64,000 bases of DNA from Catajapyx aquilonaris (Eukaryota): contig JYFJ02002003.1 in NCBI GenBank assembly GCA_000934665.2, forward strand, positions 1-64,000, given 5' to 3'. Under the pieces are notes generated by a model, which searched no databases, had not been told where the DNA came from, and saw nothing but the letters and a program-made list of their open reading frames with translations. The translations under genes and the position numbers were made by a program. Of the stretch, positions 860 to 63,917 are shown in pieces (positions within the stretch are counted from its first letter, which is position 1; each line of letters opens with the position of its first letter).

Positions 860-9394
<8,535 letters not shown>

Positions 9395-34683: not shown

Positions 34684-36013
34684 TTACAACGCAATATTGA
34701 GTCCTCGAGTGCAGTTTCCGGGTCCAACCCACCAGTCGTGAATGTCCTTATAAACTCGGCTGTCCACATTTTCGTGGAGCATCTGACACATCCGACAGAA
34801 ACAACTAGGAAACGTGGAGCTTCCGACCCTGTAGTACTTCTTCCACCAAAAGTACTGGTTGTACATGGCGTCATTTTGATCCAGAAGAGCCAGGTACTCT
34901 CCCAGATTCTTGACTGTAGGAAATGACCTGACATCGATGTATGAGTTGGGCGGAGCAACAGACGAGTAGTCAGCACCGCCGTACACCACAGGCACTATCT
35001 GCAAATGACGTGTACATGCGGTACGTCCAGCGGGTGATCCGCCACTTATTGTATACACTCACGTCAATCCCCATGGCGTTGAAGAACTTCTCAGTGACGT
35101 AGTCCCTGCAGAGCGAGTTTTCGAAGGCCAGGTAGAACTTGTAGTGCTTGTTGAGCATGTCCCAACACTTGACGTCGTCGCTCCTTGGACATGACATGTT
35201 CCCGCACGCTCCGTACACATGCACCTGGATGTACCTGGACAGCTCTCGAACCAGCACCTCTCGCTTTCCGTTCGTGTAGCAGTTGGACACGAAAATTGCG
35301 GCCATCCGACTCTTTCTGGACGCCACATTCGGACCCTCGTATGGAATCTCCGGAACCCAATTTTTCACTCCGGGGTCCACCTGATTCCCGGAAGACTTAC
35401 TTTGAATATGGGCGTATGGGAAGTAAATATCAGAGTCGGATCTGCAAAGGATGACATATTATGTATTGGGGAATGTCTGGTTTGGTCAGGTGTACCTGTA
35501 GGTAGTGGTCCAGTTGAAAAAATTGTGTAGCGGCTTAAGATATTCATTGGAACGACTGCCAGGAGATTCGAGCATGAAGAAGACGTATTTCTGACTGGCG
35601 GACCTTCTCTTTGGAACGTCTTGGAAGTCCACGCTAACTCCGTGGAAGACAATCGCGTCCCAATCCTCCAAAGGAATGAGACCTCTGAAATTACGGGATT
35701 TGTTTTGATCTCAAAATAATATTGTAGCACGATTAATCACACTGCTTTACCTGTTGGCGGAAGTGTAGCAGTTGACCTGAGGACACTTGCTGCTCACGAA
35801 GGGTTCCTGACCCTCGCCAAAGTAGTAAAAAGGCTCGCTGAAGAACGAGTTCCAGAAGAGGATCATCTTCTTCTTTGGTACGAAGATGGAAGGAGACTGT
35901 TGGATTATTATCTGTTCTATGGAAACGAGGCGATCAACGAGACTTAACATGAAAAAAAAACCAACGGAAGACGACAGCACGAGAAGCCCGAACTGAAAAT
36001 GGCGCCTGTTCAT
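34684..36013 (-). CDS. Alpha-1,3-fucosyltransferase (GT10 family), type II membrane protein
   Basis: Exons 36013-35751, 35684-35496, 35441-35063, 34998-34684; N-terminal TM; ESP, FNWTTTYR-SDSDI, YKFYLAFENSLCRDYVTEKFF, VPVVYGG, YNQYFWWK. Confidence 0.95.
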
Positions 36014-36694
36014 TGCAAGTCCTGTCACTGGCACCTGATCAGCAGAATGCAAACAATTCTCAACACTTGTTGCGGATGTTAAAGTGTGCAAGTAGGATAG
36101 AAACACCTGCTGTCAGTAATATATTTGCGGTTCCTAGTTTATACATAAATTAGTGTCACTGCTGGCCTTGAGAATGGGCCATGTAAGAATCAACAGAAAC
36201 AAAACTGATGTTATGTTGTGTAATATGCATTTCATAGTAAACCTGTGTGTAAAAATGTGTGAATAAATTCGCATACTGTGAGTACTTAGCGCGTTAGAAA
36301 ATTTACATTTTGCTTGCACATGTTTGCAGGTGTTCGATCCAGGTGCTGGGACAACACTGTTTTCAAACAATTTAATAATACTGCCAGAGGTGCATGAATA
36401 ATGCTTTTGCTTATTGAATAGCTGAAACTTACAGGACTCGTAGTCAAAATAATTCTCAATATTAAATACTCCAGGTTGTTTTTTATTGCTTCGATGCATA
36501 TAATATTTCCAAACATTCTCTGAAAAACGTGGCTTATACTTATAGTACCAAAAAATGGGATGAACATTATTTTCTCGTGTGCTGGGATGGGAGAGGAGCA
36601 GGTGCTGACCAGTATACATAATTTAACAACACTGAGCGCATGTCCCAGTAAACAATTGGTACAAAAAAAACAATGTACAAAATATTCATGGTGT

Positions 36695-39600: not shown

Positions 39601-42600
39601 CAGCATGTTGATGTTTTGCTACCTATAGGCGACAACAATTATTAGGTCGAGGCTACTGTTCTATGACAGCCACGTACTAACCATGCCATGATCTACAGTA
39701 CTGTGTTGGTTCTACGCAGTTCTAACGGTGTGCTTGACGGGAAAAGAAGAACAAAATAATTTGCAGGCACAAACGCACCTTCGAATCAAAATCTCTTGGA
39801 TCCTTAGTTACGTTTTGATGGCGCGCGATAAAGAAATGTATGTGGGGAGAGATAATAAAGAAAAATAAGAGAACGAAGAGATAATGTAGGTTACAGTCAC
39901 AATGAAGAGTTTGACAGTAGCACAACGCAAATTTGCTAGGACTTCGTTACTCTATACACTTGACATGTGTACTTACGGAGAAAACAAGAGAGTCGTTACT
40001 GTCCTGCTGAGGAAACTCCATTTTCTCTTCGAGTTCAACCTCGGCCAGATCTATGCTGTTGTAGTTCGGTTTCAATATGTCTTGAAACTGTAAAACGAGT
40101 GCTCTAATTGTTTAAAAAAATTTAAATGCGATTACACACACATCAGTTTTACCACAGGTCTGAGGTCCCGATGGTACAGGATGTATCCGTTGTTGGTCAG
40201 AGCGAAGGAGTACGCATTGACCCCTAGCTGCAAATGAAGTGCAATGAGGTCAGTTCATTATGGTCGGTCAACATTACAAATTGTTGGCATACCTTATATG
40301 CTGGAACGAGCCTTTCGATCTCTTTGAGCGGAACATCGGTACCAGCCACTCCCAACAGGTCAGCGATCCTTTCTTCCTGAAAAAGCACAAATTGGATTGT
40401 CACTATATACACTTCACCAACTCACGAACTTGACCAACCGGTTGCAACTGCTGTTAAGCTACGTTCTATCTAGAAAAAAGTGACTATAGAAGCGATCTAC
40501 AGAGGTCTAGTGCTGGAGTCATGCCGTAAGTTGTGTTTATACAAAAATTGGGATGGAAAAGTGTGGTCCTATATAGAGAGTAACACTCTCGCTGGAAAAA
40601 AAATTAACTAGTGGATACTAATGGAAGCTACTAAAATGTTCTATTGTTGCTCTTAGATGGGACACTTTGGTAGTCTCTACCTCTTTAACATTGTCAACTG
40701 GATCGGAATCGTTGCCACGATTTCCGCCAGCTCCGAGATTCCACAATGGATGCTAACAAAATGGAAAGAGAAGAGTCAACAGATGACCGGAGATTATTGA
40801 CATATTAAAATGCGGTTTAGGAGTATAACCCTTATACCATCACCTTATCTGAAAATGTGTGCAGGGTGGTGCACTGCCCAAATGCATTTTTACATATCGG
40901 AACATAACATATTGTTTACGCCAAAAGCCATTTGAAGAAAAGCAACAACCTGCTTCTCTTCAAACTGGTTGCTGGGATAATAATTTTTCCCTGTGTCCAT
41001 CAACTTTGTACTGCTGTGCGTGAACTAACTGTGCAATGCATGACCCTAAAGTTTGGCTTGGTTACCTTGCTGTTGTAATGCTTGTGTCGGTCGAAAACTG
41101 GAGTGGCCACAGAGGTCATGAGGTTGTACCCGTGGTAGCGACCCTTGGTGGTTCGATTCTGAAAAAAATAATGTTGGACCGAATAAGCAACAAGCTGCAT
41201 GGAGCATTGATGTCATTAATTATTATTACCATTTGTTGAGGGTGTTTGAAGGAGACTAGCCAGTAACGCTTCAGGCTCGTTCCTTGCTGGAATGTGCAGA
41301 ATGGTAATGTTAAGCTAATTCTCATAATTATTTGCTGTCATTCAATCATCACTAATATTATTGAGCACATATCCGTACCGCAGCGTCAGCATAGACCTGA
41401 GTCCAGACGATGGGATGATCGATCTGATTCAAGACCATGGGACGTGCCATGACGGGCGTGTACTTCATAACCTTCGCTCGCACGTCAGATAACGATTTGA
41501 CGTGCAAAAAGTACCCTGATGGAAAAACACGGAAAGGGCGTTAATAAGAGATGACGCGAGTGTATTTGAGCACACACCTCTGTTTTCGCAGGCCATGAGC
41601 TTGATGTCCTCTCCTTCAGCTCCCTCGGCCTCCTTGCCAATCAGGAAGCCAAACACTTTGACCGACTTGTCATAATTGTACTCCATGAACACTTCAGTGC
41701 AGTTCTCTGTAGCTCCGTCCGTTATCAGCATTATGGCCTGGCTGCAGTTAGCTCCCCTGTAGAACTCACCTTCCTGTGGATAAATTATACTTCAGCTAGA
41801 TAACATTGCCCAATCTGAAGCGTCACTGACCTTGTCTAGTATTTCGAAGGCGTAGGCCAGTGCTTGAGTGAAGTTGGTCTGGTTGTGCATGTGGATGTGA
41901 TCCATGTGGTTCTTGAACTCTCGTATGTTCTCCAGGTTGGCCTGGAAACGACAATGGCGGTTACAGGGGAGGTGGACAGGTGGTGGTCAATTGGGAGGAT
42001 GACACCTTGCCTGCACTAGAGTGTTTTCAAAGCATGGAACCAGTGCTTTGGTCTCGTTGGTGAACGTGAAGACGTTGACGAAGTCGTTGTCGCTCAGGGT
42101 CTCCAGCAGGGTGTTGGCCACGTGGGTGGCTATCTTGATTCGGAATCCGGTCATAGACCCGGATATGTCTATCATGATGACAATGTCCTTCGGACACACC
42201 GCGGCCTGGACATACCACGACCTCATCCGGCAGTCGTAAAGGTCCGGCTCCAGCAAACTCCAAGGGGCCGCTGCAAGTACATGTGGACACATGTGGTGTC
42301 TGGTCAAGTGAATGTCCAGCCCTCTTACCTGGAAACTGCCGAAGGATTCCGCTGGAGCTTCCAAAGTACTGCCAGGAAATGGTCGGATCCGACCTGTAGT
42401 TCTTCTCAAACACTTCCTCCAGTTCTTCGGACCAAACGATGGCGTTCATCACCGCCGGGTCTCCGTCGTGCACGTTGTCTGGCACGTGCACCGAGCTGAC
42501 GTTGTTGACGATTGGGAGGTCGTCGAAGTGGTGGTCCTCGTCCATGTACTGCCAATCATCCGGATGAATGGCGTCCATCATGTTCTTGTATCCACCCGGA

Positions 42601-44989
42601 GAAGGACGCGGAACCTCCTCTTCGTCCACTGCGTACGTCTTGCCGTTGTAGTACGGGTACATTATGGTCGGGTCATGCTGCTCTTGAGTCATGAACTTCT
42701 CCTCAGCTGCTTCCATTATACGCTGTTTCATCGGGACAAACAATGGGTCAGGAATGACTGGCACACGAATTAATTATCAAGCACTAAACGACCGCCGCTG
42801 CATCAAACCGAATGGCCCACAAACAATCTCTAATATTATTGTGTACTGTGAATAGCTGCGTTTTTGGTCAAATATGTTTCGGCCCTGGAATGCGTAGATG
42901 GTAGATCATAATATGGATGCATGCATTGAGCGACCCGATTCTAACATGATTGTGGCCTCTCGTCTTTTTTATCTTTGCGGCAAGGAGATAAGCCGTTGTG
43001 TGTGTGCCCCTCCAACCCCCCCCCCCCAACCCCCAATGTTGATACAACCATTATTATTCGCTCAAGTTGAAATCTATAAAAAAACACTTGTATACTGATG
43101 GTTGTATCCCATTTGGCCTGACCTATTTTTTAAAATTGATAGTGAAAAATAGGAAATTGTCATTATCAGAGTTGATGTTGACTGTTGAATATATACCTGG
43201 ACAGCTTTAATTTTGAGATTCATCATCCTGCTGACATCGTTGGCCATTTCCTGCAGCATCTGGGCTCCGACTATCTTCTCTATCTTGGCGTTGTGTTCTT
43301 CATATCGCTGAAAAAATATGACAATTACCATATCATGTAATAAACAATGTAAACAGGCGGGCCTTAGAGGAAGACACTAAGAAGAAGTAAAGCATTAAAA
43401 AAGTAAGGTAAAATACCGAACATTCCTACTATAGAGAGGAAAAATAAATTGGTTAAATTGCATCCACTTAGAATTTAATATTTTCAATCATACTACGGTA
43501 CTGTATTACCTGTTTGATATTTGAAATTTTTGTATTCCTGATGGCACATTTATATATTGCATATTCATGTGTCGTTGGGTAATTTGTTGTTGTGCAGTTA
43601 TTGGTAACCACTGGGAAAATATTTGAGCGATTACCTCATTCATCAAGATTAGGTGCATCTTGATGTCCTAATATATTGACCTAATGAATGGAATTTTAAA
43701 AGGTTAGAGTGAAAGGGGGGATTTACTCATTTTCGTGTTGAGCCTTTTGCACAGGAATGTGCAAAAAAATCCATAAAGCAAGAAACAGCTCTACGACGAC
43801 GTACCCTTACAAAGCCCGTAAGCAATATTATTTCCATATTAAAATTGATGGGGTGTCGTGCAGTAATAATGTCCAGTAGACTAAATGCCAGATGATGTAG
43901 TTGCGTACCTACGTTATGATTACCTTTTCATCTGTAGGGATCGTGAACAACATTGCATGTTTTTAGTATATTTAAAACATCAAAGAGATCATTAAAATGA
44001 CTACCTCACGTATAGCCTGTGCGAATAAAACATTCAACGAGCGTACTTTCGACGGCTATTAATAACGATTTCGAATATTTATAATTTTAAATTTTGCCAT
44101 GCGTCGTAATTTTGAAAATAAAAACTATGCTTACAGGGTAATCAACACAACTGGCGCAAAATGCGTGTCGCTTAATTAATTTTGTACCTCGTAGGCCTAT
44201 ATCTCTTGCGCAGCACTCTGATATTCAAAAAGCTTCGGATGGAAAAGTGGCGCATAAAAAAAACACAATTCAGCGCAGTTTGGAAAAATGTGCAGCTGCT
44301 TACATTCACAAATCGACATATTATTTTAACTTATGTTATCCTGTGGTTCTTCCTATAACTAGTCATATTTCAGACGTTAACATGCGGGGAAAAGTTCATT
44401 CATTGCAAAAAAAAAGGGGGGGGGGGTGTTACCTTACCTTCCCTATTTGCACGAATCCAGTAGCTTGCTTCCCAATGTCCCAGAGTTTGTTTCCAAAACT
44501 CTCCGCCCAGTGCAGGACACTGCATGAATAAATAAAGCGAGTTAACTCACTGACATTTATGAAATATTAATGTGGCTCAAAGTGCAGGCTAAATATGAGC
44601 AAACTGGGCACTATCACTGACACTACAGAACTGCGATAAATTTTGGAGCAGTCCAACTTCCTGTGATGTCACAGATTGAATCAAATTTCGTATCAATTTC
44701 TCGTAGCACCGGTTACGTCAACAGCATTTCCGCCAATTCGATACTGCACTATGCGAAGTCATTTTTGCCAATTCGAAACCAGCAACAAGAACAGTGCTCT
44801 CCAAAAAAAAAAAAAACCAATTGAAATGCGATCTCACTCTGCCTGCGTGACGGCATCGATGTGATTGGAAGAAGACGCTGCATCCGCTGAAGACGCGATG
44901 AGGAGGAGGAGGAAGAGGGCGGCCCCGGGGCCAATAGAAGCGGCCCCGGGGCGACGACCATTCCTGCAGCTGGGGCAGGAGGCCGACAT
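36695..44989 (-). CDS. Voltage-gated calcium channel alpha2delta subunit (CACNA2D/straightjacket-like), more than 20 exons
   Basis: Signal exon 44989-44838, then 44519-44438, 43307-43197, 42722-42329, 42270-42011 and further exons to a last exon 36793-36695. Motifs SWQYFGSSSG, YDCRMRSWY, VWA MIDAS DISGS, MLITDGA, LLGVAGTDVP, ILKPNYNSIDLAEVE, DYQAVC, and a C-terminal hydrophobic GPI-type signal. Confidence 0.95.
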
Positions 44990-46320
44990 GATGTTTCTGG
45001 AAGCAGCAGCAGCAGCAACGGCACGTTGTTTTTTGTCCAAGGCCGGGCCTGTATTTTTAGCCCCAGTCCTCCTCCTCTCCCCGGCGGATCTCCCATCACA
45101 TCACTTTATTTTCGGAAACTCACTCACACACACCGCTTTTCCAGGGATACCAACAGAGGAACTGAAAAAACAAAGCAACAACAACATTTTAGCGCACTTT
45201 TGTCCGGTTCAAATCCGGTGTGTCTCAAGGCGGGAATACCTGAAGAGACCGAAACAATATGAACTGGTCTGAATTCGGTGATGCAACGACATGCTCAATT
45301 GGGTAATAGCCGAGTAATTAGTGTGCACAGCCATCAGCACTGTCCGTCTTCATCATGCACATCATTATTTGCATACACTCATGCACTACCAACAACTGCT
45401 CATCAAGCTCACATTTCGTTGGCAATATATTTAATGGAGCTGCAATGTGCCGTACTTACTTAGCTGCCTGCAACTATAGGTGCTGAACATTCACACGTGC
45501 GACACTGCGGCAGAATGATGAGAGCGGGCTAAATAATGTACGCGCACTTGTGTCCTTCCGAGTGACAGCAGCCGAGCGGCTGAGCTTGTCTCATGTCACC
45601 ACGCGGGCAGCTTTTGGAGTAAAAAAGTTTCCAACACCACAGCACCTGCAGCTGGTGTCCGTACTGTGCGTGTAACATCCCCTTGCCGACGGTGTACACT
45701 CATCGAGATAATAACGTGCTGCCTACTGCCGCTCGTTCGTTGAACTTGTCCGAGTCAATACTGGTGACTCATCCGTCGTTCGGTTTCACTATTTTCCTCT
45801 TTTATGCAACACGCAATCTGCATTGGACGGTGTGTGTTACGTACGGGATCGAATACTATACTTTCCGTGTGCAATAGTTCCGGAATTCAGTAGGGCTATG
45901 CACGGACTTTATTGATCACTGTTGACCTGGCGCATATGCAATGCGGTAATCAAGGCCATGCGGCAGTCCCAGGCGGCTGATCACACGACCTTTTTTTTGC
46001 AGTTTGATAAAATAGTTTTTTTTTTTTACAAATCAATTTCTTGAGATGTTGCGTCATAAACGTGCCTGCAATATTTAGGTCGGGTGAATGAGAGAGACCG
46101 AAAGAGTCCGAATTCATTCCAATAGGTTACATCTTCAGCATAATAAATTATCTATTCGAATGATGGACATGGATTTCGGCAAACACTGGGATATCTCTTT
46201 ATTTCAAGAATTAATATTTTAATCCTATAGAACATTGCTGGTAAAGGTATACATAGTATTATATTGGGAATAAAGAGTAAATGTTTGGAGCAATTGAAGT
46301 TGAGACTTTTAATAATAGCC

Positions 46321-46770
46321 TACCGTAATAATTGAAGGGTTTTGGTGCAAAACCCGGATATAAGTCCACTTTCGGTCGAAAATGAGTAAGGTCGTATGAG
46401 TGGTTCCGCCACCTTGGGGCCATTCTGCACCTTTTGGTACGAAAATCAGACCTGTCATGTCACAGTCCACTGAGGAAATATAGCCATCCCAAGTGACAGC
46501 ATAGGGGTGGTTCTGAGCGCACATAGGCTGCGTTTTCGCCCTCTAGCGGGTGAAATGACAAAAGGCACCTCCTAGACTTCGGCGCCATATGGAAATCGAA
46601 ATATCTTATCTGCCTAGCGACAAATATAGCTCATATCGAAACAAACTAAGGTGAGGCCAAAACTTCAGACATTTCTTAGCATTTTAAAATTTAAATCATT
46701 TAGACGTGGTCTACAGGTTTTCGAGTTATAGGGTTTCAGAATCGGGGCATTTTTTTTCGATCACCCTGTA
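46321..46770. mobile_element. Degenerate DNA-transposon/MITE relic
   Basis: Ends in CACCCTGTA (reverse complement of the TACAGGGTG Tc1/mariner-type terminus) at 46762-46770; the partner end was not identified. A similar lone end lies at about 25404-25417. Confidence 0.35.
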
Positions 46771-47264: not shown

Positions 47265-49194
47265 ATGCAGACAGCAGCAACAGTGAAGGAAGAGGCGGAG
47301 GAAGAGGAAGAGCACATCTTCATGGGGGAAGAGATGTGGAGGACGATGGTGAAGCAGGACCCATTGACCCCACTGGAGGGCGAGGGAACAGCTGGTGTTG
47401 AAGGTGGGGTCGGCCAGGCTGATGGGGAGGCGGCCACGCTCCTGGAGGAAACCGTGGCTTGCAGTGCGGACGACCCTCTGGCATTCAGTCCAGGCGGGGC
47501 CAGGAAGGTATGTAGCGGAAGGCAGCTCAGGGGAAGCAGCTGCATATTATGCCAAATATTCACGTTGGGTTGGTCATTGCTTTGGCACATGTGGCTGTCA
47601 GAAGAGTTTATTAAAGGTATGATCCTACAAAGGTGATATGCGGTGAACATTGCAACTCCCATGGTATACATTTGTATGGTGTCAAAGAGACTGCTGAATT
47701 CCTCGTATCAGGGAAAACACCGTTTTCATTGAGCAGGTGGGCTTCTGTTCCCGAATCTGTTTTCACCTGTCATGGAAAAAAATCTGTTAAAAAGTACTGG
47801 TTGTGCTAGTCATGTTATTTGGCTCTGGATACAATGACATCAACCCACCCTTCTCTCCATCATCTCCCTCATCTACTAGGAGTGTGAAAGTACAGTGGAG
47901 GGGAAGACTGGTCGACGACGGCCAAACTTCACTTTAAAAGAAGTAGAAGCCTTGACAAGGGGATACGAGAAGAAATGCATGGTCCTCAATATCAAGGTGA
48001 AGAGTTCAAATGCAAAGAGGAAAGCTGCATGGGCAGCATTAACCAAGGAGGTTAATTCAGTCAGCCATTATGGTAGGAGTGTTGCAGAAGTGATGAGAAA
48101 AGTGAAGGACTTGAAAGCGGCCACCAAGAGCAAAGGTATCCATAGTTAAAATAGTCCTGTGCATGCAGACATTTAGGCATAGATTTATGACAAACAATAA
48201 TTTTGCCATATGGAATTTCGGCCTGACCCAAGTTAAGCATCTGCATCATAAAAAATGACCTCCAGGATATATTATGGCATTTTCACATGTTATCTCTTGA
48301 TCAATTCGAATATTTTTGCTCCATTTATCAAGTTATAGCATGAAACGCGTGTATTTCAGTCATGGCTCGGCGGAAAGCGGGTTGTGGTGCCTCGAGTGCT
48401 CCCCGTCTCAATGAAATTGAAGAAAGGATTGCTGCTATTCTTGAAAAGTATGTAACTTCAAGCACTGAAGAAGTGGCAGATGTTCGGATGATTCCTGAGA
48501 GTGAGAGTAAGTAGCACGTCACATGCCTTTCACCATTTTACATTTTAAAATGCGGTGTTTATCTTCCTCAGATGCAACTTCTCGTGCTTGTGGTGAGACT
48601 ACCAATGAGGAACAAGTTGCTGATGAAGATCCGAGGGTCAACACGAATGGTCATGTGGATGTTGAGGCTGAGTCACCCAAGGAGTCACCACTATCACCTT
48701 CTTGGAGTCCTGTCCAGGTGTAAGTGCAGTGCAGGCTAATGGCATGTCAGTTTTGAACCTACCATGTGACATATCTCAATGTTTGGCATTGCAGAAGATT
48801 TTGTTTCCTGCAGCTTCTGCCATTGTTTAAAGAGATGAAATGTAGCAATACATTGTAGGTGCCTGATTTTCTATTGTCGTCCAAACAAGACTTGTTAAGG
48901 GCCATTTTCTCGAACAGTGGTTCAAATGTAAACCTGGTTCAAAGCCGGTTTAAACCCTTGACAACAGCCTAACAACAATCAATCAGGGATTAAACTGACT
49001 TTGAACCCAGTTTACATTTGAACCTTTGTTCGAGAAAACGGCCCTTAATGTGCTCAGCCAACATTGATCTCTTGAGTTCTAACTGTACGCATTCCTACAG
49101 GAAAACTGAAGCAGACGAGTCTCTGGATGAACTGTGGCAACAGAAACCAGCCCTGCTGCGAGAGGAAGTTGAGGTACAGAAAGCCATCTGCTAG
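47265..49194 (+). CDS. Myb/SANT-like DNA-binding protein (MSANTD/NAIF1-type), exon 1 plus cassette A
   Basis: Exons 47265-47507, 47880-48135, 48360-48506, 48572-48719, 49101-49194. RRRPNFTLKEVEAL...KRKAAWAALTKEVNSVS...RSVAEVMRKVKDLK; the terminal exon is truncated relative to cassette B. Confidence 0.8.
48899..49044. mobile_element. 146-bp MITE with long terminal inverted repeats and TTAA flanks
   Basis: TTAA|GGGCCATTTTCTCGAACAGTGGTTCAAATGTAAAC ... GTTTACATTTGAACCTTTGTTCGAGAAAACGGCCC|TTAA; imperfect inverted repeats of about 60 nt. Confidence 0.9.
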
Positions 49195-49684
49195 AACAAT
49201 TCTGACTGGCCTGACTCCTGCAACATTAGCAATCGTGAAGAATTAGCCACACTGCATTTCTTAAGATCTTGGAGAAAAATTTGGCGGATGGACTGAGAAG
49301 TTCAATTTCAATTTAGCATGTGTGGCTAGTTGTATGATAACAAATTAAGGTGCTATTTTTGCATATAATGCATGTTTGACACGCTGATTTATTGAAATCC
49401 GTAGGGGCCACTCTGGTTGAAATTATTGGCTGCAGTGTTTTATTTTTTTAATGAACTTAAATAAGAAACTATTTTGGGTAGGTTTGACCTCTTTTAAGGT
49501 ATTGCACGGACCTTTGTTTTATGATTTTGGAATGAAGGGCTTATCCAAAACTACATGAAAATTTCTTACTCAAAAGTTGAGAGTCTGAGGGTACTAGTTA
49601 CGATATGTATTGAGTGACACTATTATGGCTCCCTCTCCCTGAGGGGAACGACATCTACTAACCCTTCCCTCCCTCATCTGATAG

Positions 49685-50883
49685 GAGTGTGAGAATATGG
49701 TTGCCAGGAAGATTGGTCGCCCACGTCCCAACTTCACCTCTGAAGAAGTAGCAGTTCTGACCAATGGATACAAGAAGAATAGCTCAATCCTCAATGTCAA
49801 GGCAAAAGGTCCCAGCATTTTGAACATAACGAGGAAGCCAACATTGGTGGCATTAACGAAGGAGCTTAATTCCGTCAGCCCTTATGGCAGAAGCGTTGCA
49901 GAAGTGATGATAAAAGTAAAGGCCTTGAGAAAAACTACCAGGAGCAATGGTAAACAGAGTTAAAATAATCATGTGCATGCAATAATTTAGGCTAAGAGCA
50001 CCAACAATGAGACATGTGTATTTTAGTCGTGGCTCGGAAGAGAATGATGACTACAACAAGGTGCGGGCCCCAGGAAATGCCTCCACTCAGCAGGATTGAA
50101 GAAAGGATTCCTGTCACCTTTGAAGAGCGTCCAACTTCCAGCAGTCCAGACGTGGCAGATGTTTCGATGCTTCCTGAGAGTGAGAGTCAGTAGCGCATCG
50201 CGTGCCTGTCACCAGTTCACATTTTTAAACGTGACATTTTCTCTCTCAGATGCAACTTCCCCTACTGTTGGTGAGACCACCAGTGAGGAGCAAGTTGCTG
50301 ATGAAGATCCAAGGGTCGACACTAATGGTCATGTGGATAATGAGGTTGAGTCACCACCATCACCTCCTCAACTCGGCAGGGGTACAGTCCAGGGGTAAGT
50401 ACAGGATAAAGGCATAACAGCTCGTAGAATGTAGATGGGGTTAAGTCAATAATGGGCATGTCATGACCTAACCATGTGACAAATCTCCCAATGTTTCCCA
50501 TGGGAAACAAGGTTTTTTTTCCTTGGGTTAGCTACTGTTGCCTGCAAAATTGAAATATCATAATGCATTGTAGATGCCAGAGTTTCTATTGCTCTGCCAT
50601 GAAGCCTAATACTTCAAAATAATTTACTGAATTTGAATTGATGCATTCTGGCAGGAGAGCGCAAGAAGAAGAGCCTCAAGACTGCCATGTCATGCAGATG
50701 CGCAAGAAGAAACTGGCCCTTCTGAGGGAGCAAATTGAGGTTCAGAAAGCCTTGGCATCCGCTGCAACAGCTCAAGCTGAAGCACTGGCTGCAATGGCCC
50801 GCTCACTGCAAGGAATTGCGGAGAATCAGCCTCGCATTCTTCAGACCCTGGAGGAAATTAGGGATGGGATTGTTTACGTGTAA
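49685..50883 (+). CDS. Myb/SANT-like gene, duplicated cassette B (exons 2-5)
   Basis: Exons 49685-49949, 50027-50185, 50250-50394, 50655-50883, all open and in the same phases as cassette A; ends in a coiled-coil (KKLALLREQIEVQKALA). Confidence 0.75.
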
Positions 50884-51687
50884 CCACAACCACAGAGTAG
50901 TTCACGTGTAGTGGTGAAAGTAGGGCTAGTTGTATCAGCCTAAATGATAAGGACAAAATTGCACATGCTGTGCACTGCACACACTGATCAGATTTAGATG
51001 CATTTAATGTTATGCCATGTCAAATGATATGATACGCAAATATCTGGAGGAATAATACTGGACAACTTCAGGGGCACAAGTTTGGACTCCGATGACGATC
51101 TCTGATCGAAGGAAAAAGTAATGCTACAATGTTTCTGTAGTGATCTTCCATAATCTGAAATATGGCCAGAATTTCCTTAATTTTCGCTGATACAGCTACG
51201 ACCACAGTATATTTGTAAATATAATATTTTCAACTAAATTTGTAATTAATGCTGAATGTAGTTTTAATACCACATTTTCCTTTGCAGTATTCCACGTTAT
51301 TTGCTCTTTCAGATGCTTATACGAGTATTTATATAGTTTTTGAGTATTGCAGTTTTTCAGGTGAATTGTGATGAAATAGAGCCAACTGATGGGGCCGGTA
51401 CGTATTATGCTGAGGGAACCAGCCATCCAGAATGAAGGGGAGGGAAATTTTGTTATTTTTTTTATTTTCCTCGTAAAATTATCCAGAGTAAATTGATAAG
51501 TGATGCACTGCCGACATGCATTTTAAAAAATATGGACATCGCAAATTTTGAAGTCTGATTTTGTGAAATGTCACCACTTATTTGAAGGTAACTTACCAGA
51601 CATTCCCATTCAGAAAATACCATTGGATGTGATTGGCCAAGTGAGATTATTACGTGGGATGTAGAGTACAATTCCATGCAGAAGGAA

Positions 51688-52971
51688 TCAGTGACGCCAA
51701 TTGGGCCTGATCTTCATCTCCACTTTCTTGAGTGAATATTTTATTCCCTTCCACGTGTACCACTGAACACCTTTGTCAATTTCTGAGCTGTTCCCTCTGA
51801 AGTACTGTCCATTTAGGTTGGAGTGCCCGCAGCTGTTGTACCACCATGCACCTTGCTGTTGATCCGCACAGTTTCCAAAGTTGTTGTCATGGTCCTTGTT
51901 CCAGGTGGTGAAAGCCATCCCGGAATGGTGCTTCATGAGCGAATCTCCCGCCGTACTTTGTTTGTTGTATCCAGACACGAAGAGACGGTAGTTATCCTCT
52001 TCGTCCGTAACCCTGAACATGTCATATTCAGCATGCGCCTTTCCTCCTTCCCAGTCCTCCAAGTCCACACGAAGTCGGACAGGAGTCGAAGGAGGACTGG
52101 TTAGAGCATGGATCTTATCCAGACCTGTCGCAGCAATGTGACGGTAGTTTGGTTGAAAAATACAAGGTCGTATGATGCTTGCATGCAAGTCACTCACCTA
52201 ACCAAAATTCCCGATTTAAGTCACCAAATCCTTGCTTGTAATCATTCCATTTTCGGTAGAAATTGACATGAGGTATGACATCGTCTCTTCTTTGGATGAC
52301 GATCCATCCACCATATGTCTCAAGGTCGCAGTACACCTGTAATAAACGTGGCGTGGCAATTGAAGTAATTCGACGCCATTACTGCATCAGTGCAAATCAT
52401 TATCACTTCTGGAATAAATTTAATTCCTTTCATAATTAACAATTACCTCAAATTGTTTTCCTGAGACAGTGATGGTGTAAATGCCAGATTGCTCACTCCC
52501 TTGTCGTTCCACCTCATCGTAGCAGTTGGATGCACTTACTTTCCGGTTTGATTTGGAAGTTTCTGACGCTGCCTGGATGTCACTCCTAAGTGCTTGTAAC
52601 TCTCGTGTAATCTTTCCCTCCAAGTGTGTCAACCTGGTCAACACCTCTTCGACGTTACGTTTGCTTGTGTATGCTGCCGGAAAGAAGCCGGATAATTAGA
52701 TCCAACCTGGTCAAGTCGGTTAGATTAACTCACAGGCGTGGATGATCTGGTTGTGAACAGATTTGATCACGACTGGTTTCAACGAGTTGACGACTGACTG
52801 GACCACACCCGAGATCACTTCATCAGTGGTTTGGAAATCACTCCCGACGGATCCCGATCCCTCTTCCTCGTTCGTGTGACTCCCACCATGGACCTCAACA
52901 TTCCCTCCTCCAAAGAGGAGGGAAAGGAGAACCTGGGAGTAGAGTACAGCAAAACTTGCATCGACCTCCAT
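51688..52971 (-). CDS. FREP 7
   Basis: Exons 52971-52734, 52673-52447, 52336-52198, 52124-51688; complete FBG domain. Confidence 0.92.
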
Positions 52972-53247
52972 AGTTCCACAAGGGCTCACAAATATGGACT
53001 GAGAATCAGATGCAACCAAGCGGGATCGAGATACAGAGGTCAGAGAGCACCATGCAACATCTGTCATGACCTTTAGATAATAAATAATTTATTATTTATA
53101 GGCTTACTTAAAGTGTGCACTTTTGTGCTAGGGACAGCATCATGACGAAATACCATGCCTGCAAAAATGGTCGGATGCTTTATTTTTGTCATTGATAAGT
53201 ATGTACATTACTTGGTATGTAAGAATGTCGGTCTCCGGTACAAAGGA

Positions 53248-54829
<1,582 letters not shown>

Positions 54830-55782
54830 CTTTGCAAAATGTTTTATGAGTAGTGTAACAGCAAGCCAAGCTACTGATATACAATCAAACGAGGAAAACT
54901 TAGCAATGCAAAGGTCAGAGTGTTATGTCACGTATTTTTGAGAGAGATCAAGGGTATCCACTCGTGCTTATCTTAAAAAAGCTAATTCGTTTATCTCAAG
55001 AGCACTCTTATTCCAATATTATTAAGTTACTTTATATCATCCGGCGACATCTTGCTGCTGCGATGAATCTGAAGAACTTATCATTAATACTGAACCGTAC
55101 TTATGTGTAATACAAGGTGGGTCAGAATTTCAGATCATTTTCTACATGTCCTATTGGTTCAAATGCCATGTATAGCGTTGCCGAGTGACTGAAAAATGTG
55201 TGTTTTTTTCTCACTTTAATCTAGGAATAAACAGTCAGGCCGTTGCTTAGGACATGCCTGACTGTTGTGGCTCAGAACAAGAGCCGTGTCAGGCGCTTGT
55301 GTGGACAGTCGGATCGAATAGTCGGCTATACGAAACTGTCGCATGACGGTGCGATTCAGGCAACGACGCCACATCATACAACAAAAAGTATTGCGAGAGC
55401 GACTTCTTAGGCTGGTGGAACTGGTCGAGTTCATAACCGGAGGAAGCTACAAAACTTCTGCGGTGAAGTCTATATACACACTGACTGGTGAGCAGATATT
55501 GTGCAGATTCAAGTTAGAGATTTGCGACGAATTATTCTGTAAGTATTAACACTAATAGTTACTTGCTGAAATGCTTGAGGGTCCAAAAAAATTCATTAGA
55601 TATTTTCCAGGTACTTTTGCTAAGTACAGTATCACATTACCCACTCTTGACATTTTAGTCGGATCTACGTTCATGAGCATTCCCAGCCTATTTCAATGTG
55701 AAATAAGTCTATGTCATACTATATGACATTTCAGGTTCTGGTAATTGCGACAACAGTTTACTGCAACTTACAAGGACCCGCG

Positions 55783-57222
55783 ATGGAGAACAGCAAAGTC
55801 CCGCGTAAACTGGAGAGATTCGTGCATCTCCTACTGTCGTATTTCTACAGCACAGAGGATTTTCTGATAGTGGACCTTCTGATGAAGAAGATATGCCTAA
55901 CAGAGAAGGACTTGGAAAAGGACCTCATGCTCGGCCACGACGTGCTTCGATCGAGTTTGCAGCACCTGATGGCCGACAAGGTCATTCATTATCGGTACAT
56001 AATCGAGGACGACGACGGGGACAGTCGACGCAAGGTCACGCCCTGCTACTACTACATCGACTACAGGAAGTTGGTGAACGCGGTCAAGTACCGCCTGTTC
56101 GTCCTGAAGAGGAACTTGAGGAACAGCCAAGGACTAATCAGGTTCAGGTGTCGGTCGTGCCAGACCGACTACGGCGACGAGAGCGCGGCCAACCTGATCG
56201 ACCCAGAGACCATGAACTACGTCTGCATCTTCTGCGCAGGAAAGGTCGAGGACGAGGGTCCCCCCAAACCAGTGGTGCGCGGACTGGTGAATAAGTTCCA
56301 CACGAAGATGGTCCCTCTGGAGTCTCTTCTGAAAGTGGTCGACCGGATGCCGCTGGAGGAGATCAGCGACATACCTGGTGGTAAGCTGGACCGGAACTCA
56401 GCAGCTGTACCCGAGATGTCCGGAGACGCGACCAGGACCAGAAGAGAGGAGGGTTTTGCACCGGAAGAGGTCAAGCAGAAGAAAGATTCCAAGGCGACCG
56501 AAGCACCTCTGGACGTGGTGGGGGAGAACGTCTGGGACATGAGCAAGCCAGAAGTCGTGGAACGTGTTGCTGTCGAACGATTCCAGCATCTGATGAATAT
56601 CGTTCAAAGGTACTGCAGCCAAGATAGGCCTGAAAAAGCAGGTACCTGCAGTAGATGGCTTGCCAGTTGTGGGAAATATAGGAATCTTATTCGTATACTA
56701 ATAGTGAAATGCGTGCCTATAAACATAGGCCTATACATCAAAACTCAAAGGATGTCGATTTATGGTCACTTTTGTTCTATATGTTCTTGTCGAAAAAGTA
56801 GGTTCAGGCAGTGCTATCGTGGAGGGCGATAAAACAATTGGCACCACCATATAATGACGATTACTTTAAAATTCACATTTCTAGAGTAATCGCATTTTGT
56901 TATAGACTACTGCAGTTATTATCATCCGCTTTTCGGTTGACGACAATGCAGCTGATATTAACTGCAGTAGTCTATAACAAACTGCGATTATTCATTGGCG
57001 GAAGAGCTGCTCAGAAAGCGGGAATTGATAGCAATGCTTTCATACAAGTCGCCTTTTCTTTCCGTTGCAGAACTGGTGTTGGACGTGGAGCCCTTAACCG
57101 AAGCCCAGTTGCAAGAGTGGGCACGGAGGACGAATTCTCTTCTCGTTAACAAGCAAGCCATAGCATTCAGAAAACGACGTAACGACAACCTATGTTTTTG
57201 CAAGTTTGACGATGCTCTCTGA
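55783..57222 (+). CDS. Divergent general transcription factor IIE alpha-like protein
   Basis: Exon 55783-56641 plus a probable last exon 57071-57222 (phase 1). Extended winged helix (VPRKLERFVHLLLSYFYSTEDFLIVDLL...LRSSLQHLMADKVI...YYYIDYRKLVNAVKYRL) and a C-x2-C-x21-C-x2-C zinc ribbon, collinear with TFIIE-alpha/GTF2E1. Confidence 0.85.
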
Positions 57223-58253
57223 GAGTACCTTTATACGAAGTGTTTCGAGACACTTGCCTGAACATATATAAAGAGCGATGCGGACAGTCAGTGTCTACAA
57301 CTGTAGAAATAAAGATCCTGTTGCTTCTTACACACTTACTTGAATCTGACAAAATAATGATGTTACGTAAGTTATATAGTGTATTGTATAGTAATTGATA
57401 CCTATAAATAGGTTGCAGCAATTCACGTTGGGCACTTTTAAATGATACTTTTCACGTGCAATCAAAAGGAAAATTATTATTACACATGGTATTGCGCGCA
57501 TTATTGTGGAGATGTGAACCAAAGATTTCCATCAGCGTGTGTCACGGCTACACAGGGTACGTGGCTTGAGAACTCTATATACTGCTTTAGTGAATATTGG
57601 GATATTGCCCACTGTTATTGGAACAGAGCAAGGCGAATATAGTCGAAGTTTTGCACCAATAACCAGCCACCATTGAAGTTCCAAGCCCCAAGCTACTTAT
57701 CCCATTTTGGGCTGTATGTGCTTGGGCGCCTCGGAAATATTTTTTGCTTACAGCATACCTTAATAAATTGTTATAATTTTTGATATAACAATATACTTAA
57801 CGTACATTTTTCTGGTTCCTTGGTAACAGTTCAGCAATTTTGGGAGACTCATTGCGAGGATAGATCCAAAGTACTCTTTCATTGCCGCGATGTTAAATAA
57901 CTCTAAGGTACCCAAAGATATTATTTTGTTTTCTTGAATGGGACTAATTTGCTCTTAATATTTTAGACCAGATCAGTTCATGATCCATAGTATTATACCT
58001 GGTGCGCATAAAGCGGCTTCTCCCTCGCCGTATTGATGATGCATATCATACAAAGGTCAATATATTATTCAGGGGTTGTTTCAGGATTGACTGCATTGTC
58101 ACCAATATGGATTGAAGATGACTTGAGTGACACCTTATCCAGTGACTTCATCTGGACCCAATCCAGCCCAGTTTCCACGGAAAGACAAGTCAAGGTGTGG
58201 CCAATTTGATCTGTAATTTGGCGATAGATCTGGAGCGTTAAGTTCAAAACGCG

Positions 58254-60262
58254 ATGGCCGGACATTGGAGCCAGATGAACCCGTTGATTGGCCTATTGAA
58301 AGATGAACGTTGGAGTCTGGCTGAGGGACTAATTAATAAAACCAGCCCTGGGCATGCCATATTCACTCCAGGTAAACAATTGGATTAATCCGAATTAGTA
58401 GCCTACAGTATATGATACATTGAACACTCGGATCTCAGTACTTCTACAAGATGATTGATAGTAATTTGATGTCATTGGTGTAGGACACCATGCTGAGTAT
58501 AGAAACGTCATGTAGAATTTTGCTTATAGATAGGCTACAGTGTTTCTGGCCAAAAATTGCTAATTAGAACTAACAGTACTGATATACCTGTTGCAGTGAC
58601 TCAATTCAAATAGCTGGTACATTCTGTTGCTATTTGTTTTCAGACCCACACAATGAATCGCCCCTTCAGTTTGTGCTTGGCCGCTACGATTACACGTTTC
58701 AAAGCCCAATTCACCTGAAGTTGGCCAACCTGATCCTGCAGAAAGGATCTGAGAGTCAGTTCAGTTCATGTCGGAAAGAGCTGATAAGCACATTCGTCTC
58801 CTCTTACCTGACAACGTGGTGCAATTGCAGCACTTACACTCGCAGGTATACGAACCAGGTCGCACTGCCTTATTGTCTGTTGGACTGGTTGTCCACTTAT
58901 GTGCCGCACGTCTGATTCAATAATTATTCCAGGAGACTAGTCCAAGGTTCTGCCCCCTTTGTGATAGGATTCGACGGAGAGATAAACATGCCCCCGGAAG
59001 AGGCCAAGCGGCAGCTGCTGCAGTTTGCCTGCATGCTGGCCGGTATGTCAAAACATCGTATGCTACATTCGTCTAAACCCTAGAGAAATATATTCAGAGA
59101 AGGGTAAAGTCATAATGCATGATGCAATCCTCACTCTTCATACCTGTGCTTTCAGACAAAGTCGGTTGGAACCGGGACGAAATATTTGTCAGCTCCGTCT
59201 TCGTCGATGTGCTGGGAAATCCCGGTGGAGACCTGGACATCCTGAAGTTGGTGTGTCCGACGGGCCATCACTTGAACGACACCGATGAAGAAAGACGAAC
59301 CCCTCTCATGCTCCTCAGCATCCGCTGCCCTAGTCCTCAGCTGCACCTGCTGGATTACCTGTGGACTCTTCCAGTGGTAAGGTGCACTGTGCGGAACAAT
59401 GCGGATGTCAACTGCTGTTGAATGTCCTATACAGGTGCCGGATGTCCATGCGAGGGACAGTGACAACCGGACGGCTCTGTGGTACGCGGTCTGGAAGGGT
59501 CACTCTGGCCTGGTTTGTTACTTGTGCGAGAAAGGCGCCAATGGAAGTTTCGACGGGCATGTGTACAGCGCCAGGTCCATGCTGAGGAGGTCACGCCTCG
59601 AGGTCAACCCCTTGGTTGCCGGAGTGCTGTCCGATTCCCTTTATTTTCCGAAGACAGGAATATTCGACAAGGGTATGGTGGACGGGATACTGCGCCAAAC
59701 CGTGTCTTCTGCTGTGGACTTGGGACACTTCAGCGACAGGGACACACTGAAACACGTCCAGGCCCTGCTTCAGGTCGACACCAACTTTCCCCACCTTGGA
59801 AGAAGAGAGAACCAGTATCGGAACAGCGTGGTCACCCTGATGTTCGGATCTCTCTCTGCCGGATTGCAGCAGCTCTGCGTGAGGGCCATCGTGAATGGCG
59901 TGTTCTTCAGACGCACTTCCAAAGGCAAAGGCAGGGCTGTCTGTTCGGATAGAAACTCTTATACATCCAAGGTGACTCTTCCTGCAGGTGGCAGCACTTG
60001 GAGCCTTCTGTCAGTGTCAGAGGTGGACATCCCCCGACCACAAGACTACAGGACGAGCAGGGACATCATTGCGTGGCATAAGAACAAGGCCAGTTGCGTC
60101 ACGCCGGAGCTTGTTGGAGACAAGATGCGTGCCCTGGGCATACCCACCACCCTCAAGACCTTCTTCGAGTTGGAGATGGCCAAGGCACAGCTTTGCTTTC
60201 ATGTCAACCAGTACGACGGAGGTCACAGGGGAGGCTGGGAGTGGGGCAGAAATGTTGAATAA
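58254..60262 (+). CDS. Ankyrin-repeat protein with SOCS-box-like C-terminal elements
   Basis: Exons 58254-58371, 58644-58845, 58933-59042, 59156-59376, 59434-60262, phase-consistent. Ankyrin repeats LNDTDEERRTPLMLL and DVHARDSDNRTALWYAVWKGHSGLVCYLCEKGAN; LQQLCVRAI and LGIPTTLKTFF. The 5' end is uncertain. Confidence 0.75.
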
Positions 60263-60374
60263 AGTCGTGCGGTTCGTTCATTTCGTGCACTAATGGTATA
60301 TACTATAGTAAGTTTATTGTGTTTCTTCCTGGTCTGGCTGCATAAGACAGACATCGTGATGACATTGTTGGATG

Positions 60375-61780
60375 TCAACGACTTTCCGGTTGCCGGAACT
60401 CTGCCTTGATTGAAATGTACGCAACCACCGCCGAAGTTAACTGAAAGAGTTGCAAGCACCTCGTTGTGAGTTAAACGAAACAGCCAACTTACGGTCGATG
60501 TCATCTGCGGTCATGCGATACTGACTGAAGAAGTAACGGTTCTTCCAATGGAGAGTAGCTTCGGTGTAGATATGCGCACCGGTGGGGCAGACAGACGGGA
60601 AATCAAAAACTGGATCTGTAAAAAAAAATCGTTTGGAAAAATAATAATTAAGTGTAGATGGTAATTACCTCTCGTTGGCATTTGGTGTCCAAGCCTGACA
60701 GCCTGACCCGGTGAAGCCGTTCCATTGCGGTCGTGTTCTGGAAAATAGGTCTCTATTGCAAGTACTGTACAGTGTACACACAGCCCGACAGTGCTTCTCA
60801 GTGCGATTACTTACGTTTAACTGTCCTTGCTTGTATTTAGCTGCGGCAACCAGAGCGAACATGATGGCCAAGGTCGTGTTAAAGTAAACCATGACCCATG
60901 CGCATTCGCAACCGATGTGAAGATGCGCTGTTAGGTAAAAGGCGGCTGCACATACCGTGGCGGCTAGGAAGGAGAGATGCTGGGTCACGAACTGGGTCGC
61001 GAAGGTCATGCTGATGGAGTCGACGGTCTTGACCAGGTGGTGGAAGGCGCCTCCAAGCTCGGACAATGCGTCGCCAACACTCTCGCTGTCGATGACCTCA
61101 TCTTCCCGCACAGGACGGTCAGAAAAGGTCTTGGGCAACTTGCGGATCTGGGCGTCGATCCCCGAATTGACCAGGTCGAAACGACGCCTGACCGCTCGGA
61201 CCAGGAAGGTCACGGTGACCGGAGTGATAGAGTACAGGAGCAGGTCGTAGGTCAGAACCAGGCTGGCCAACAGGTAGCACATGTCGCCTGAAATAACTGC
61301 TTTGCTGGCGGAATATGCCAAGTGGCAGATGGGAATGGCTGCCATCATTGCCAGGAGACTGATCGCGTCACGGCGAGAGTCACACTTGAGGTCACTGCCC
61401 ATCTTCCGGTCGAATTTGGCTATCCGTTTGAACAGGCGGGTGACCTGGCCGTGCTTGGTCTGGACCAGGACGTACCGGACGCATGTGAACGCGAAGCAGT
61501 TGAGCACAGAGGATATGAGGATGAGGAGACACGGACCCGACGGGAGAGCCTGGTCATCCCAGTGATGGTGACACCCGAAGAAGGCGGAGACTATTCCGAT
61601 CACTTGAACCGCTGGAAATATCAAGGGTGTCAACCGGTCGGTTCTGGCACAGTACGGACCGGACCAGGCCTGTTGAGTTGGAAACAGGCCCATGTATTTG
61701 GTGGCCACTGAGAGAGGACGGTACGCCTCGTATATGGTCCTTCCATCAGGTTTGCTAACATTGTCACCCGAATCACACAT
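60375..61780 (-). CDS. Gustatory receptor 4 (atypical C-terminal motif)
   Basis: Exons 61780-60815, 60737-60669, 60615-60526, 60440-60375; same 69- and 90-nt phase-0 exons as GR1; TIYEAYRPL...YMGLFP N-terminus; AATAAA at 60318-60313. Confidence 0.85.
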
Positions 61781-63917
61781 GGCGGTGGAGTAGCAGGTGA
61801 CCTGATTTGCTTCATATATTTTATTTGTGCACTGCTTGGAGTGTCGTAACTGAGCACTTGAATGTACGACAGGTGTGCCCGGGATGTGTTCAGAGATAAG
61901 CTAGTGATGGAGCTTCATTGAAAACCGGAACCGACTGATTAGAGTCTATTAAGTGAGTCAATATTCACTTATCTGCAGTGATCGTGGCTGGCCCTTGAAT
62001 TACTCAGGTTCAAAGCCAATCAGATGGCTATTGTTACAACAAATTCGTAAAGATAATGAAGTACACTCTTGATCTTATTTTTTGTTACCTTTTCCATTTC
62101 TCTCTATCGCCATCATGCACATGCGGAAGATAGACCATGTAAAGAAGTTTAACTGTTTCTTCGATGACTCTCTAATCAATTATTCCGAATACTGTCAATG
62201 GAATTAATCTACCAGCATTTGGCCTTTTGGTTGCCAAAATTTAGGGGAAGAAATAGGCTGATTTAGGGGGGAAAAAAGATATTGAGTCCCATTTATTGGA
62301 AAGTGTCAAGATCATAAATAAGAAGTACGTAGTTAGTCGTATAGTTAAAATTGATTACTGGCATGGGTCCCGAAGGTGTCTAGGAGCACCCAGAGCATCG
62401 GCTTCATCTGCAGCTCATCCTATCGCTGCACTGAACACCTTGTAAATATGCACTAAACAGGTGCATGTTCATATGGCGCAACAGCTGCTGGGAGTTATTC
62501 CCAGTGCTTCGTGATTTTTTTTCATATTGAGAACGTCATGTCGGCATTTGGTTTTTGAAATTCCTGTTGAAGGATTCTCAACATGTAATGTCAAGTAGTT
62601 ATCTCTTGCATTATTTGGTGGAATAAACTGGTTCGAATAAGAGGAAAATGCAAAGGAATGGTCTCATGCATGGGGAGGAAGGGGTTCACGCTACGTGCAG
62701 TACATAATCACCCCGATTTTGTATGGGCAGACCCCCAGTAACGGGAATTTACTTGTTAGTTTGATTTTAAAATCTTTCATGCGATTTACAAGAAGGTTAT
62801 TAAAGCAAAATTATATGATCCTATAAGGAAGAACGGAAAACCGGTCAGGTCACTTTACGGACTATTCGCCTTCGAATGAAGAGAGGCAGCTTCCACACTT
62901 CTTGGTCACTCTTTGAAGCAACTCCATTACCGGAAGAGTAAACAACCTCCAATGTGTTTTTCGAAGAAGTCTTCTTGATCGTCAGATGCGAGGAACTCTT
63001 GGGAGTTGTATGGACTATACCAATCCTTAGTTCATGGACCGCAATTCAAGTAAAAGCAAGTGCCGACCCTACAAAAACATCTATGGGAAACTTGCACATC
63101 AGCCTCATTATATAGAGTAAATTAATTCATAATATATGCACTCCTTTAGGTTCAATCGTTTATTGGAACCGTGTAGAAACAAGGTCCACAGGTGCCTTAC
63201 CCCTACCATGCACTCAATCATTATATAGATAGGCCTACACTTCTTGATGATTTCTACCCAGAATTGCGAGAGATCATTCTAAAGTATTTCACCGCGTTGT
63301 TTTCTTCCACCTTTCAGCGGAAACAAGCTACTTGTTCATTAATATTCAATGAGGCTGTTATTCGCAAGATTCAAACAGTTGTTCATGACGGATCAGCACT
63401 GTCTTGCTTTTTGTTGCGTTGGTTTACACTCTTTTTCCAATATGAGAGTTCATGAACCAAGTATATGAACCACAATTCGCAAGTGTTCCCCGCTTCAGAC
63501 GATCAAGAAGTAAGGAGCATACAACCTCCACCTGTGTTTTTCGAAACTTATTTTGCAAAGAAAATCAAAGCCTATAGCGTACAATAATGATGAGAGTTTC
63601 CGGTTGAAAGTTCTGCTATTCCATTTTCAGTTTTCTTCCTCCTCATTGACATCGATGTGACGTAGAGTGGATATGCGTATGTTCCCCTTTCTAATTTTGA
63701 TATTAATTAACTTTTGAAGTTTATATTCCCACTATAAGTGTATAGCAGATAGATATTTCGCACTCTGTGAATGGCCCGATTATTGCAACTTATTACATTT
63801 TCAAAACATACAACAACTTTGTTCTTAATAAAAGGGCCACTGACGTAACAAAAAATCAGACGATTTTTTAAGATAAATAACATCACATACTCTGAAATTT
63901 CATATTATTTTAGGTTA

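Follow-up and report, generated by a model that had tools for sequence, protein, structure and literature searches.

A diverged TFIIE-alpha gene of Catajapyx aquilonaris that lacks the p62-binding acidic domain

Introduction

TFIIE-alpha is normally encoded by a single-copy, slowly evolving gene, and the acidic domain of the protein is, in textbook accounts, the part that holds TFIIH. The canonical protein (human GTF2E1, PDB 5gpy_A and 7nvs_W; insect TfIIE-alpha; Pfam PF02002 and PF11521) contains an extended winged helix, a C4 ribbon with a spacer of 21 residues and a helix after the ribbon, all of which are also found in the protein described here. According to the accessible part of PMC2275666, the N-terminus is needed for binding of TFIIE-beta and the acidic region for binding of TFIIH, and the core of the acidic domain is highly conserved among metazoans. 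Mutants of F387 and V390 lose p62 binding, while in vitro transcription drops by merely 20-40% (same excerpt). Additional contacts between TFIIE and TFIIH are made through the E-dock, E-bridge and E-floater helices as well as the linker helices (MAT1 RING); further, the ribbon touches RPB7, and in yeast the winged helix and its wing reach the upstream edge of the bubble (PMC7111264, available sections). In yeast, the tip of helix 3 of the winged helix is required for dimerisation (PMC4495717, in the portion available).

Archaeal TFE-alpha (PDB 6kf4_G, 6xjf_G) also consists of a winged helix and a ribbon without a C-terminal acidic domain, as in our protein, to which it is 15-20% identical. It promotes opening, and such a core can work without TFIIH (PMC4495717, same portion). 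The likeness is architectural convergence only, because the gene described here derives from an animal gene.

Duplicates of general transcription factors are known in arthropods. The initial annotation of the locus named germline paralogs of TBP, TAFs and TFIIA only, and this premise turned out to be incomplete: stalk-eyed flies carry numerous duplicated Pol II, TFIIB, TFIIE and TFIIF genes with expression in the testis, and Teleopsis quinqueguttata, one of three species tabulated, has two TFIIE-alpha copies (PMC4824122, accessible text). Two supplementary files of the same paper gave no match to TFIIE. Like our gene, if it is a paralog, these duplicates are additional arthropod copies of general factors that usually exist as one gene; however, testis expression is demonstrated for the flies, while our gene is read from its sequence. 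Drosophila Moonshiner, a paralog of TFIIA-L, and the testis TAFs are truncated or diverged basal-factor paralogs with germline roles (PMC10183819, PMC4824122, both in excerpt). They belong to other factor families, and their partners and expression are established. In the literature searched, mostly outside subscription journals, we found no tail-less animal paralog of TFIIE-alpha. Basal-factor duplicates, even of TFIIE-alpha, are already on record, but these searches gave none that has diverged so far and lacks the p62-binding domain.

Results

Gene model and genomic setting

The window, i.e., the whole stretch of 64,000 nucleotides of contig JYFJ02002003.1 that was analysed, contains at 55783-57222 on the forward strand a reading frame of two exons encoding 336 amino acids (1008 coding bases). 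There are no internal stops or frameshifts; the second exon and its splice junction are predictions from the sequence. The gene is made up as follows:

55539..55734, + strand, possible 5' UTR intron, predicted from splice-site consensus (GTAAGT donor, acceptor at 55610 or 55734)
55783..56641 (859 nt), + strand, first coding exon, encoding residues 1-286 and one further base, open frame from the ATG at 55783
56642..57070, + strand, predicted phase-1 GT-AG intron of 429 nt with donor and pyrimidine-rich acceptor
56884..56993, no strand assigned, MITE-like inverted repeat of 110 bp within the intron, 49-nt arms that are 88% complementary
57071..57222, + strand, predicted coding exon 2, 152 nt including the stop, about 50 residues, basic and without known domain
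57308..57313, + strand, AATAAA, candidate polyadenylation signal 86 nt past the stop

Most of the coding sequence thus lies in one exon, as the initial annotation had it. The acceptor chosen for exon 2 is both the nearest and the richest in pyrimidines among five in-frame acceptors within 2.6 kb. Retention of the intron would give 349 residues with another C-terminus, likewise non-acidic. The intronic inverted repeat has no second copy within the window. A promoter scan with a few Drosophila core-promoter patterns found only TATATA at 55471 and one Inr-like match.

The gene has a cluster of fibrinogen-domain genes on one side and an ankyrin-repeat gene on the other, with 7tm_7 chemoreceptor genes near. 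These neighbours, together with the best matches of MetAP2 from the same window, indicate an arthropod. In DNA run X1, which may be the source data of the window, a single contig covers 53655-57396 with 0 differences. Among the contigs of runs X1 and X2 (one sample, possibly the source of the window), none from an extra copy at 82% identity or above aligns over 55341-56674, since in both runs the summed depth there equals the depth of the single contig. Run X5, a single shallow contig set of unrecorded kind, has zero cover from 55341 to 62000, which speaks neither way on expression.

The protein belongs to the TFIIE-alpha family

The TFIIE_alpha family of Pfam (PF02002) matches residues 14-114 with 53.4 bits, the cut-off being 22.9, and the matches to solved structures are TFIIE-alpha or Tfa1 in all eleven cases (11/11, best E 1e-25). 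The protein has the following parts:

55822..56124, + strand, extended winged-helix domain, residues 14-114, from PF02002, the AlphaFold2 models and Foldseek
56149..56235, + strand, C4 zinc ribbon (C123, C126, C148, C151), from the cysteine pattern, putatively metal-binding
56269..56343, + strand, post-ribbon linker helix, residues 163-187, helical in both models and aligned with human residues ~170-195
56419..56442, + strand, arthropod-type motif SGDATRTR that survives in the tail, residues 213-220, from a shuffle test
56548..56622, + strand, predicted amphipathic helix, residues 256-280, model pLDDT ~63

The winged helix and the ribbon are intact, which agrees with the first description of the locus. 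The spacing of 21 between the cysteine pairs of the ribbon (C123-x2-C-x21-C-x2-C151) is the canonical one, present in 110/110 insect-type proteins, and the winged helix carries a beta-hairpin wing (residues 69-91) that is acidic at its tip. AlphaFold2 gave a mean pLDDT of 90 for residues 1-199 from an alignment of 81 sequences, and with this core model Foldseek ranked human TFIIE-alpha chains at the top (E 1.7e-16). However, because the model depends on its input alignment, the Foldseek match speaks for the family more than for stability. The ESM Atlas result agrees with the assignment. Beyond the core, AlphaFold2 leaves residues 200-255 disordered and makes 256-280 helical with low confidence, the helix possibly being induced by the alignment used.

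The gene is a member of the TFIIE-alpha family, and it is not a canonical metazoan TFIIE-alpha. At the start of helix 41-48, C38, E41 and D43 are invariant in an alignment of 11 rows; we map this region onto the tip that yeast requires for dimerisation, a correspondence of our own. The protein would probably form a heterodimer with TFIIE-beta and bind the Pol II clamp and RPB7.

The acidic tail is lost and one arthropod-type motif is kept

The p62-binding acidic domain is lost. PF11521 is not found in any of three tail pieces of the protein (0/3), while all controls are positive (9/9). An acidic-domain profile built from the C-terminal 70 residues in 22 canonical sequences likewise finds nothing in the spliced protein and in 2608 six-frame segments of the window (best E 1.2), i.e., no hidden acidic-domain exon within the window, and 470 of 1000 shuffles score as well against this profile as the real tail does. 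Three arthropod sub-profiles, covering the KERPxW segment, the acidic string with its strands and the last two helices, have no match in the protein, while 5/6 controls score with each (the KERPxW controls are non-arthropod and reach 10-25 bits). A fourth sub-profile, for an IMxxLLxHE helix, also gives no match, but it is a weak profile with merely -1.5 to 5.7 bits in its controls; our guess is that this helix is the E-floater. More generally, the arthropod tail motifs may correspond to E-dock-, E-bridge- and E-floater-type helices.

After residue 200 the longest run of D/E is 2 and the best density 4 per 10 residues, compared with a minimum of 5 and a median of 6 in 110 insect-type tails. The net charge of the last 76 residues is +2 against a median of -18 in the same tails. 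The reported lack of an acidic C-terminus and of a poly-acidic tract thus holds after residue 200; however, an EDDDGD run is present at the wing tip. In all, when compared with canonical TFIIE-alpha, the protein lacks KERPxW, the acidic string and PF11521, is shorter by ~85 residues and ends in a basic C-terminus.

One piece of the tail is still recognisable. The score of SGDATRTR (213-220) is reached by 0 of 2000 shuffles, the motif having been spotted by eye before the test. A motif of SG[DE]ATR type is found in 118/119 arthropod-type proteins and does not score in the primate or fish controls, so this is a feature that the protein shares with insect and arthropod TFIIE-alpha. The helix at 256-280 has no significant match to canonical tail profiles, and the tail matches no family. 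MAFFT placed exon 2 and this helix on the helices of the acidic domain, but the profile and shuffle tests gave no support for such a remnant.

Divergence and constraint

The comparison set consists of 119 arthropod-type TFIIE-alpha proteins, 110 of them profile matches of 400-435 residues and 9 hand-picked (6 of 116 profile matches were left out for their length); the named ones are insects and prawns, and the others are assigned by similarity. The core of our protein is 30-35% identical to these proteins and 33% identical to the primate protein, while the 119 cores themselves are 46-67% identical to the primate one, with a median of 64%. This bears out the wide departure from the metazoan N-terminus that was noticed at first by eye. 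The linker ahead of the ribbon, also noted as short, has 4 residues fewer than the canonical one (19 residues against 23 in 110/110 insect-type proteins).

We found no close relative in the collections searched. An exhaustive search of 1.84 billion representatives gave 358 matches, with at most 38% identity among the 150 listed, and of ten clusters looked up, those with a name hold canonical TFIIE-alpha from prawns, primates, fish and flatworms. A word-indexed search with exon 1 returned none among 497 candidates, three proteins of the window have no exact match in the protein collection (0/3), and a scan of metagenomes with the protein confirmed 0 of 46 pattern matches.

In a quick tree of 64 rows, in which the protein is unplaced, its branch is 4.1 against a median of 0.10. 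In a careful tree of 25 rows the branch is 6.7 against 0.26, and the protein falls weakly among pancrustacean and insect rows (support 84/99 and 85/86, unstarred). The phylogeny proposed with the initial annotation gives a clear long branch and a weakly backed placement. Together with the SGDATRTR motif, this placement suggests an arthropod origin.

The acceleration appears to be specific to this gene, because MetAP2 in the same window, one gene only, evolves at a normal rate: its exon is 82-87% identical to that of 11 animals, which are themselves 79-96% identical to each other.

Even so, the substitutions are far from random. Among the columns that are invariant in arthropods and primate, 48/98 are kept, compared with 14/94 of the others (Fisher p 5e-7). 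By conservation class, 15/17, 23/37, 16/51 and 14/87 columns are kept, a series that is computed from 80 of the 150 listed representatives and biased toward agreement, as these were found with the protein itself. Simulated neutral point mutation to 60, 50 and 40% identity leaves the frame stop-free in 3, 1 and 1 of 300 runs, and GC3 after simulated neutral decay is 0.65-0.57, against 0.78 in the real core. For comparison, GC3 is 0.60-0.75 in MetAP2 and the GC of the intron is 0.39; along the gene, GC3 drops from the core to 0.57-0.60 in the tail. The usual marks of a pseudogene are absent: there are no stops and no frameshifts, and the substitutions are constrained. This shows long-term purifying selection on the core, the tests speaking of past and not of present selection.

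The remaining 50/98 invariant core columns are changed. At the wing tip a new acidic run, EDDDGD, has been gained and the equivalents of the invariant G84/K85 are lost. Out of 14 residues that contact RPB7 (list from PMC7111264, available sections), 4 match the arthropod consensus and 10 are changed, an erosion about the same as in the whole core (62/192). Given the changed invariant columns, the acidic wing tip and the short linker, normal function in the pre-initiation complex may be lost.

Origin of the gene

The status of the gene as a paralog, which the initial annotation had proposed, receives indirect support from the normal rate of MetAP2 and from the best 120 profile matches, 119 of which carry an annotated acidic domain. 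The window itself holds no second TFIIE-alpha copy.

A scan of metagenomes with canonical proteins gave 67 loci. In 13 hand-picked loci of several pieces we mapped the introns; several of these loci are near-identical and thus non-independent, and a few GC-donor calls are doubtful. All of them (13/13) have at least one intron in the span equivalent to exon 1, while our gene has none in codons 1-286 and hence none of the introns mapped in its insect-like relatives. The recurring introns are at reference codons 42 (5 loci), 98 (5), 141 (4), 153 (4) and 216 (4 clear). Most of the remaining loci are single-piece, and many are probably transcripts. The lack of these introns indirectly supports the earlier suggestion of a retro-derived gene, and retroposition is the origin that we favour from the exon structure. 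It is not proven, because intron-free canonical genes exist (two uninterrupted ones, L024 and L026, lie on contigs of 26 kb and 16 kb) and long exons are common in the window.

A diverged tail-less protein is also found in another basal hexapod. The springtail Orchesella dallaii has a protein of 210 residues with the N-terminal domain of TFIIE-alpha (CAL8070814.1, P0042, an automatic gene model). Like ours, it is tail-less, diverged (49% of arthropod consensus columns) and on a long branch; it stops directly past the post-ribbon helix. Another springtail, Allacma, has a conventional TFIIE-alpha core. Orthology of CAL8070814.1 with our protein is not supported: the two are not grouped in the tree and share 14/65 derived residues, rank 8 of 104 rows. 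Neither the tree nor the shared-residue comparison supports orthology for a further protein of 228 residues (P0027). Both are diverged tail-less arthropod-type TFIIE-alpha; each could be a truncated paralog of independent origin or a gene model that is incomplete. Since CAL8070814.1 does not group with our protein, similar truncated copies may have arisen independently.

Discussion

A possible route to a TFIIE core with loosened TFIIH coupling

We suggest, with about even confidence, that the gene is a lineage-specific paralog kept by selection, whose product is a TFIIE core loosened from TFIIH and restricted to some tissue, probably the germline. An arthropod TFIIE-alpha gene would have duplicated in one lineage, probably through an mRNA intermediate, and the duplicate would have gone on coding for a protein while its sequence changed very fast. 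Its winged helix most likely pairs with TFIIE-beta, either the canonical one or one that has diverged along with it, and the protein would sit on the clamp and stalk of Pol II in a restricted cell type, most plausibly, by analogy, the male germline. Without the acidic domain and KERPxW, its grip on TFIIH (p62) would be weaker, and so would its stimulation of CTD phosphorylation. Some promoters could thereby be served by a variant pre-initiation complex.

A selected tail-less variant would test in an animal whether TFIIE with weak coupling to TFIIH can open promoters. It would also bear on whether, outside stalk-eyed flies, tissue-specific variants of the initiation complex involve factors other than TBP, TAFs and TFIIA. 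Should the gene turn out to be silent or in decay, it would be one more duplicate that is fading in the usual way. A wider scenario can be speculated, in which a basal arthropod lineage has a second, co-evolving pre-initiation set for germline Pol II starts with little or no TFIIH anchoring, a return to the architecture of archaeal TFE, with recurrent loss of the tail in hexapods; we think this distinctly unlikely.

Alternative explanations

The changes at the functional surfaces could also be read as those of a competitive inhibitor, which binds TFIIE-beta or the clamp, can neither melt DNA nor recruit TFIIH, and thereby sequesters partners and damps initiation. The wing tip is acidified, and the G84/K85 equivalents are lost, where the yeast wing meets the upstream bubble edge (PMC7111264, available sections); the RPB7-contact loop is altered and the net charge of the tail reversed. 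Still, a simple decoy would not need all that has been kept, namely the four zinc cysteines, the helix after the ribbon and a motif of the tail, and archaeal TFE-alpha without the acidic domain aids opening all the same (PMC4495717, in the portion available); we therefore regard such an inhibitor as rather unlikely. The very long branch and the fall of GC3 towards the tail would also fit a once-functional duplicate that is now under relaxed selection or was recently silenced, its open frame a leftover. Against this stand 1008 coding bases free of stops and frameshifts, the high GC3 of the core and the strong site-specific constraint, because of which any neutral period was at most short and recent, and this explanation too appears unlikely. 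The rewritten tail would also fit a neofunctionalised adaptor, in which the core joins Pol II or TFIIE-beta to a chromatin factor through the helix 256-280 and the basic exon 2 and so starts transcription at non-canonical loci. The predicted new helix and the Moonshiner precedent in Drosophila, a TFIIA paralog (PMC10183819, in excerpt), speak for it; but the tail matches no family and the helix, of low confidence, may come from the alignment, which makes the adaptor quite improbable.

It is very improbable that this is the sole TFIIE-alpha of the organism, accelerated and with its acidic domain shed. The window holds no second copy, and transcription in vitro does not strictly depend on the acidic domain (PMC2275666, accessible part), but the canonical arthropod-type copies examined are all at least 46% identical to the primate core, even tapeworm and nematode-like rows still reach 36-47%, MetAP2 shows no lineage-wide acceleration, and metazoans conserve the acidic-domain core highly (same excerpt). 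Finally, splicing could skip exon 2 and run from exon 1 into the ankyrin-repeat exons further down, which would make a fusion protein; two acceptors, at 58644 and 59156, share the frame of exon 1 (phase 1). However, the ankyrin gene starts with an ATG exon of its own (58254-58372), the acceptor of exon 2 is the best one and an AATAAA follows exon 2, so a fusion is extremely unlikely. The selected, TFIIH-loosened paralog is thus the reading that we prefer.

Other genes in the window

The ankyrin-repeat gene downstream (58254-60262, + strand) has, after its ATG exon, a long last exon, and DNA contigs with differing letters over 59000-60200 suggest paralogs of it elsewhere. On the other side, tandem fibrinogen-domain genes with a coiled-coil-like N-terminal part occupy 10200-33800 and 51688-54840, and this array is interspersed, on either strand, with 7tm_7 chemoreceptor genes that look like single-exon genes. 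Between the two parts of the array, the minus strand carries what we take, by eye from the ORF translations, to be an alpha-1,3-fucosyltransferase-like gene (34600-36100) and a calcium-channel alpha-2-delta-like gene (37100-45100).

At 47592-51210, one X5 contig of 2037 bases unites three separate pieces, which fits a spliced transcript. This gene has internally duplicated exons (79-86% repeats), and its last piece presumably resembles a Myb/SANT-associated coiled coil. High-copy repeats, with a summed contig depth in the thousands, lie at 46600-46770 and 48895-49048, the latter being a MITE-like inverted repeat with 64-nt arms.

In the first intron of MetAP2 (ATG at 851), there is a candidate cassette exon of 1.75 kb in phase 1-1 at 1943-3697 (+ strand). 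It is stop-free and in frame with exon 1, and would add ~585 low-complexity residues rich in Pro/Ala/Lys/Glu to the N-terminal extension of the enzyme. Smaller Lys/Glu-rich candidate exons are found near 4400-4650.
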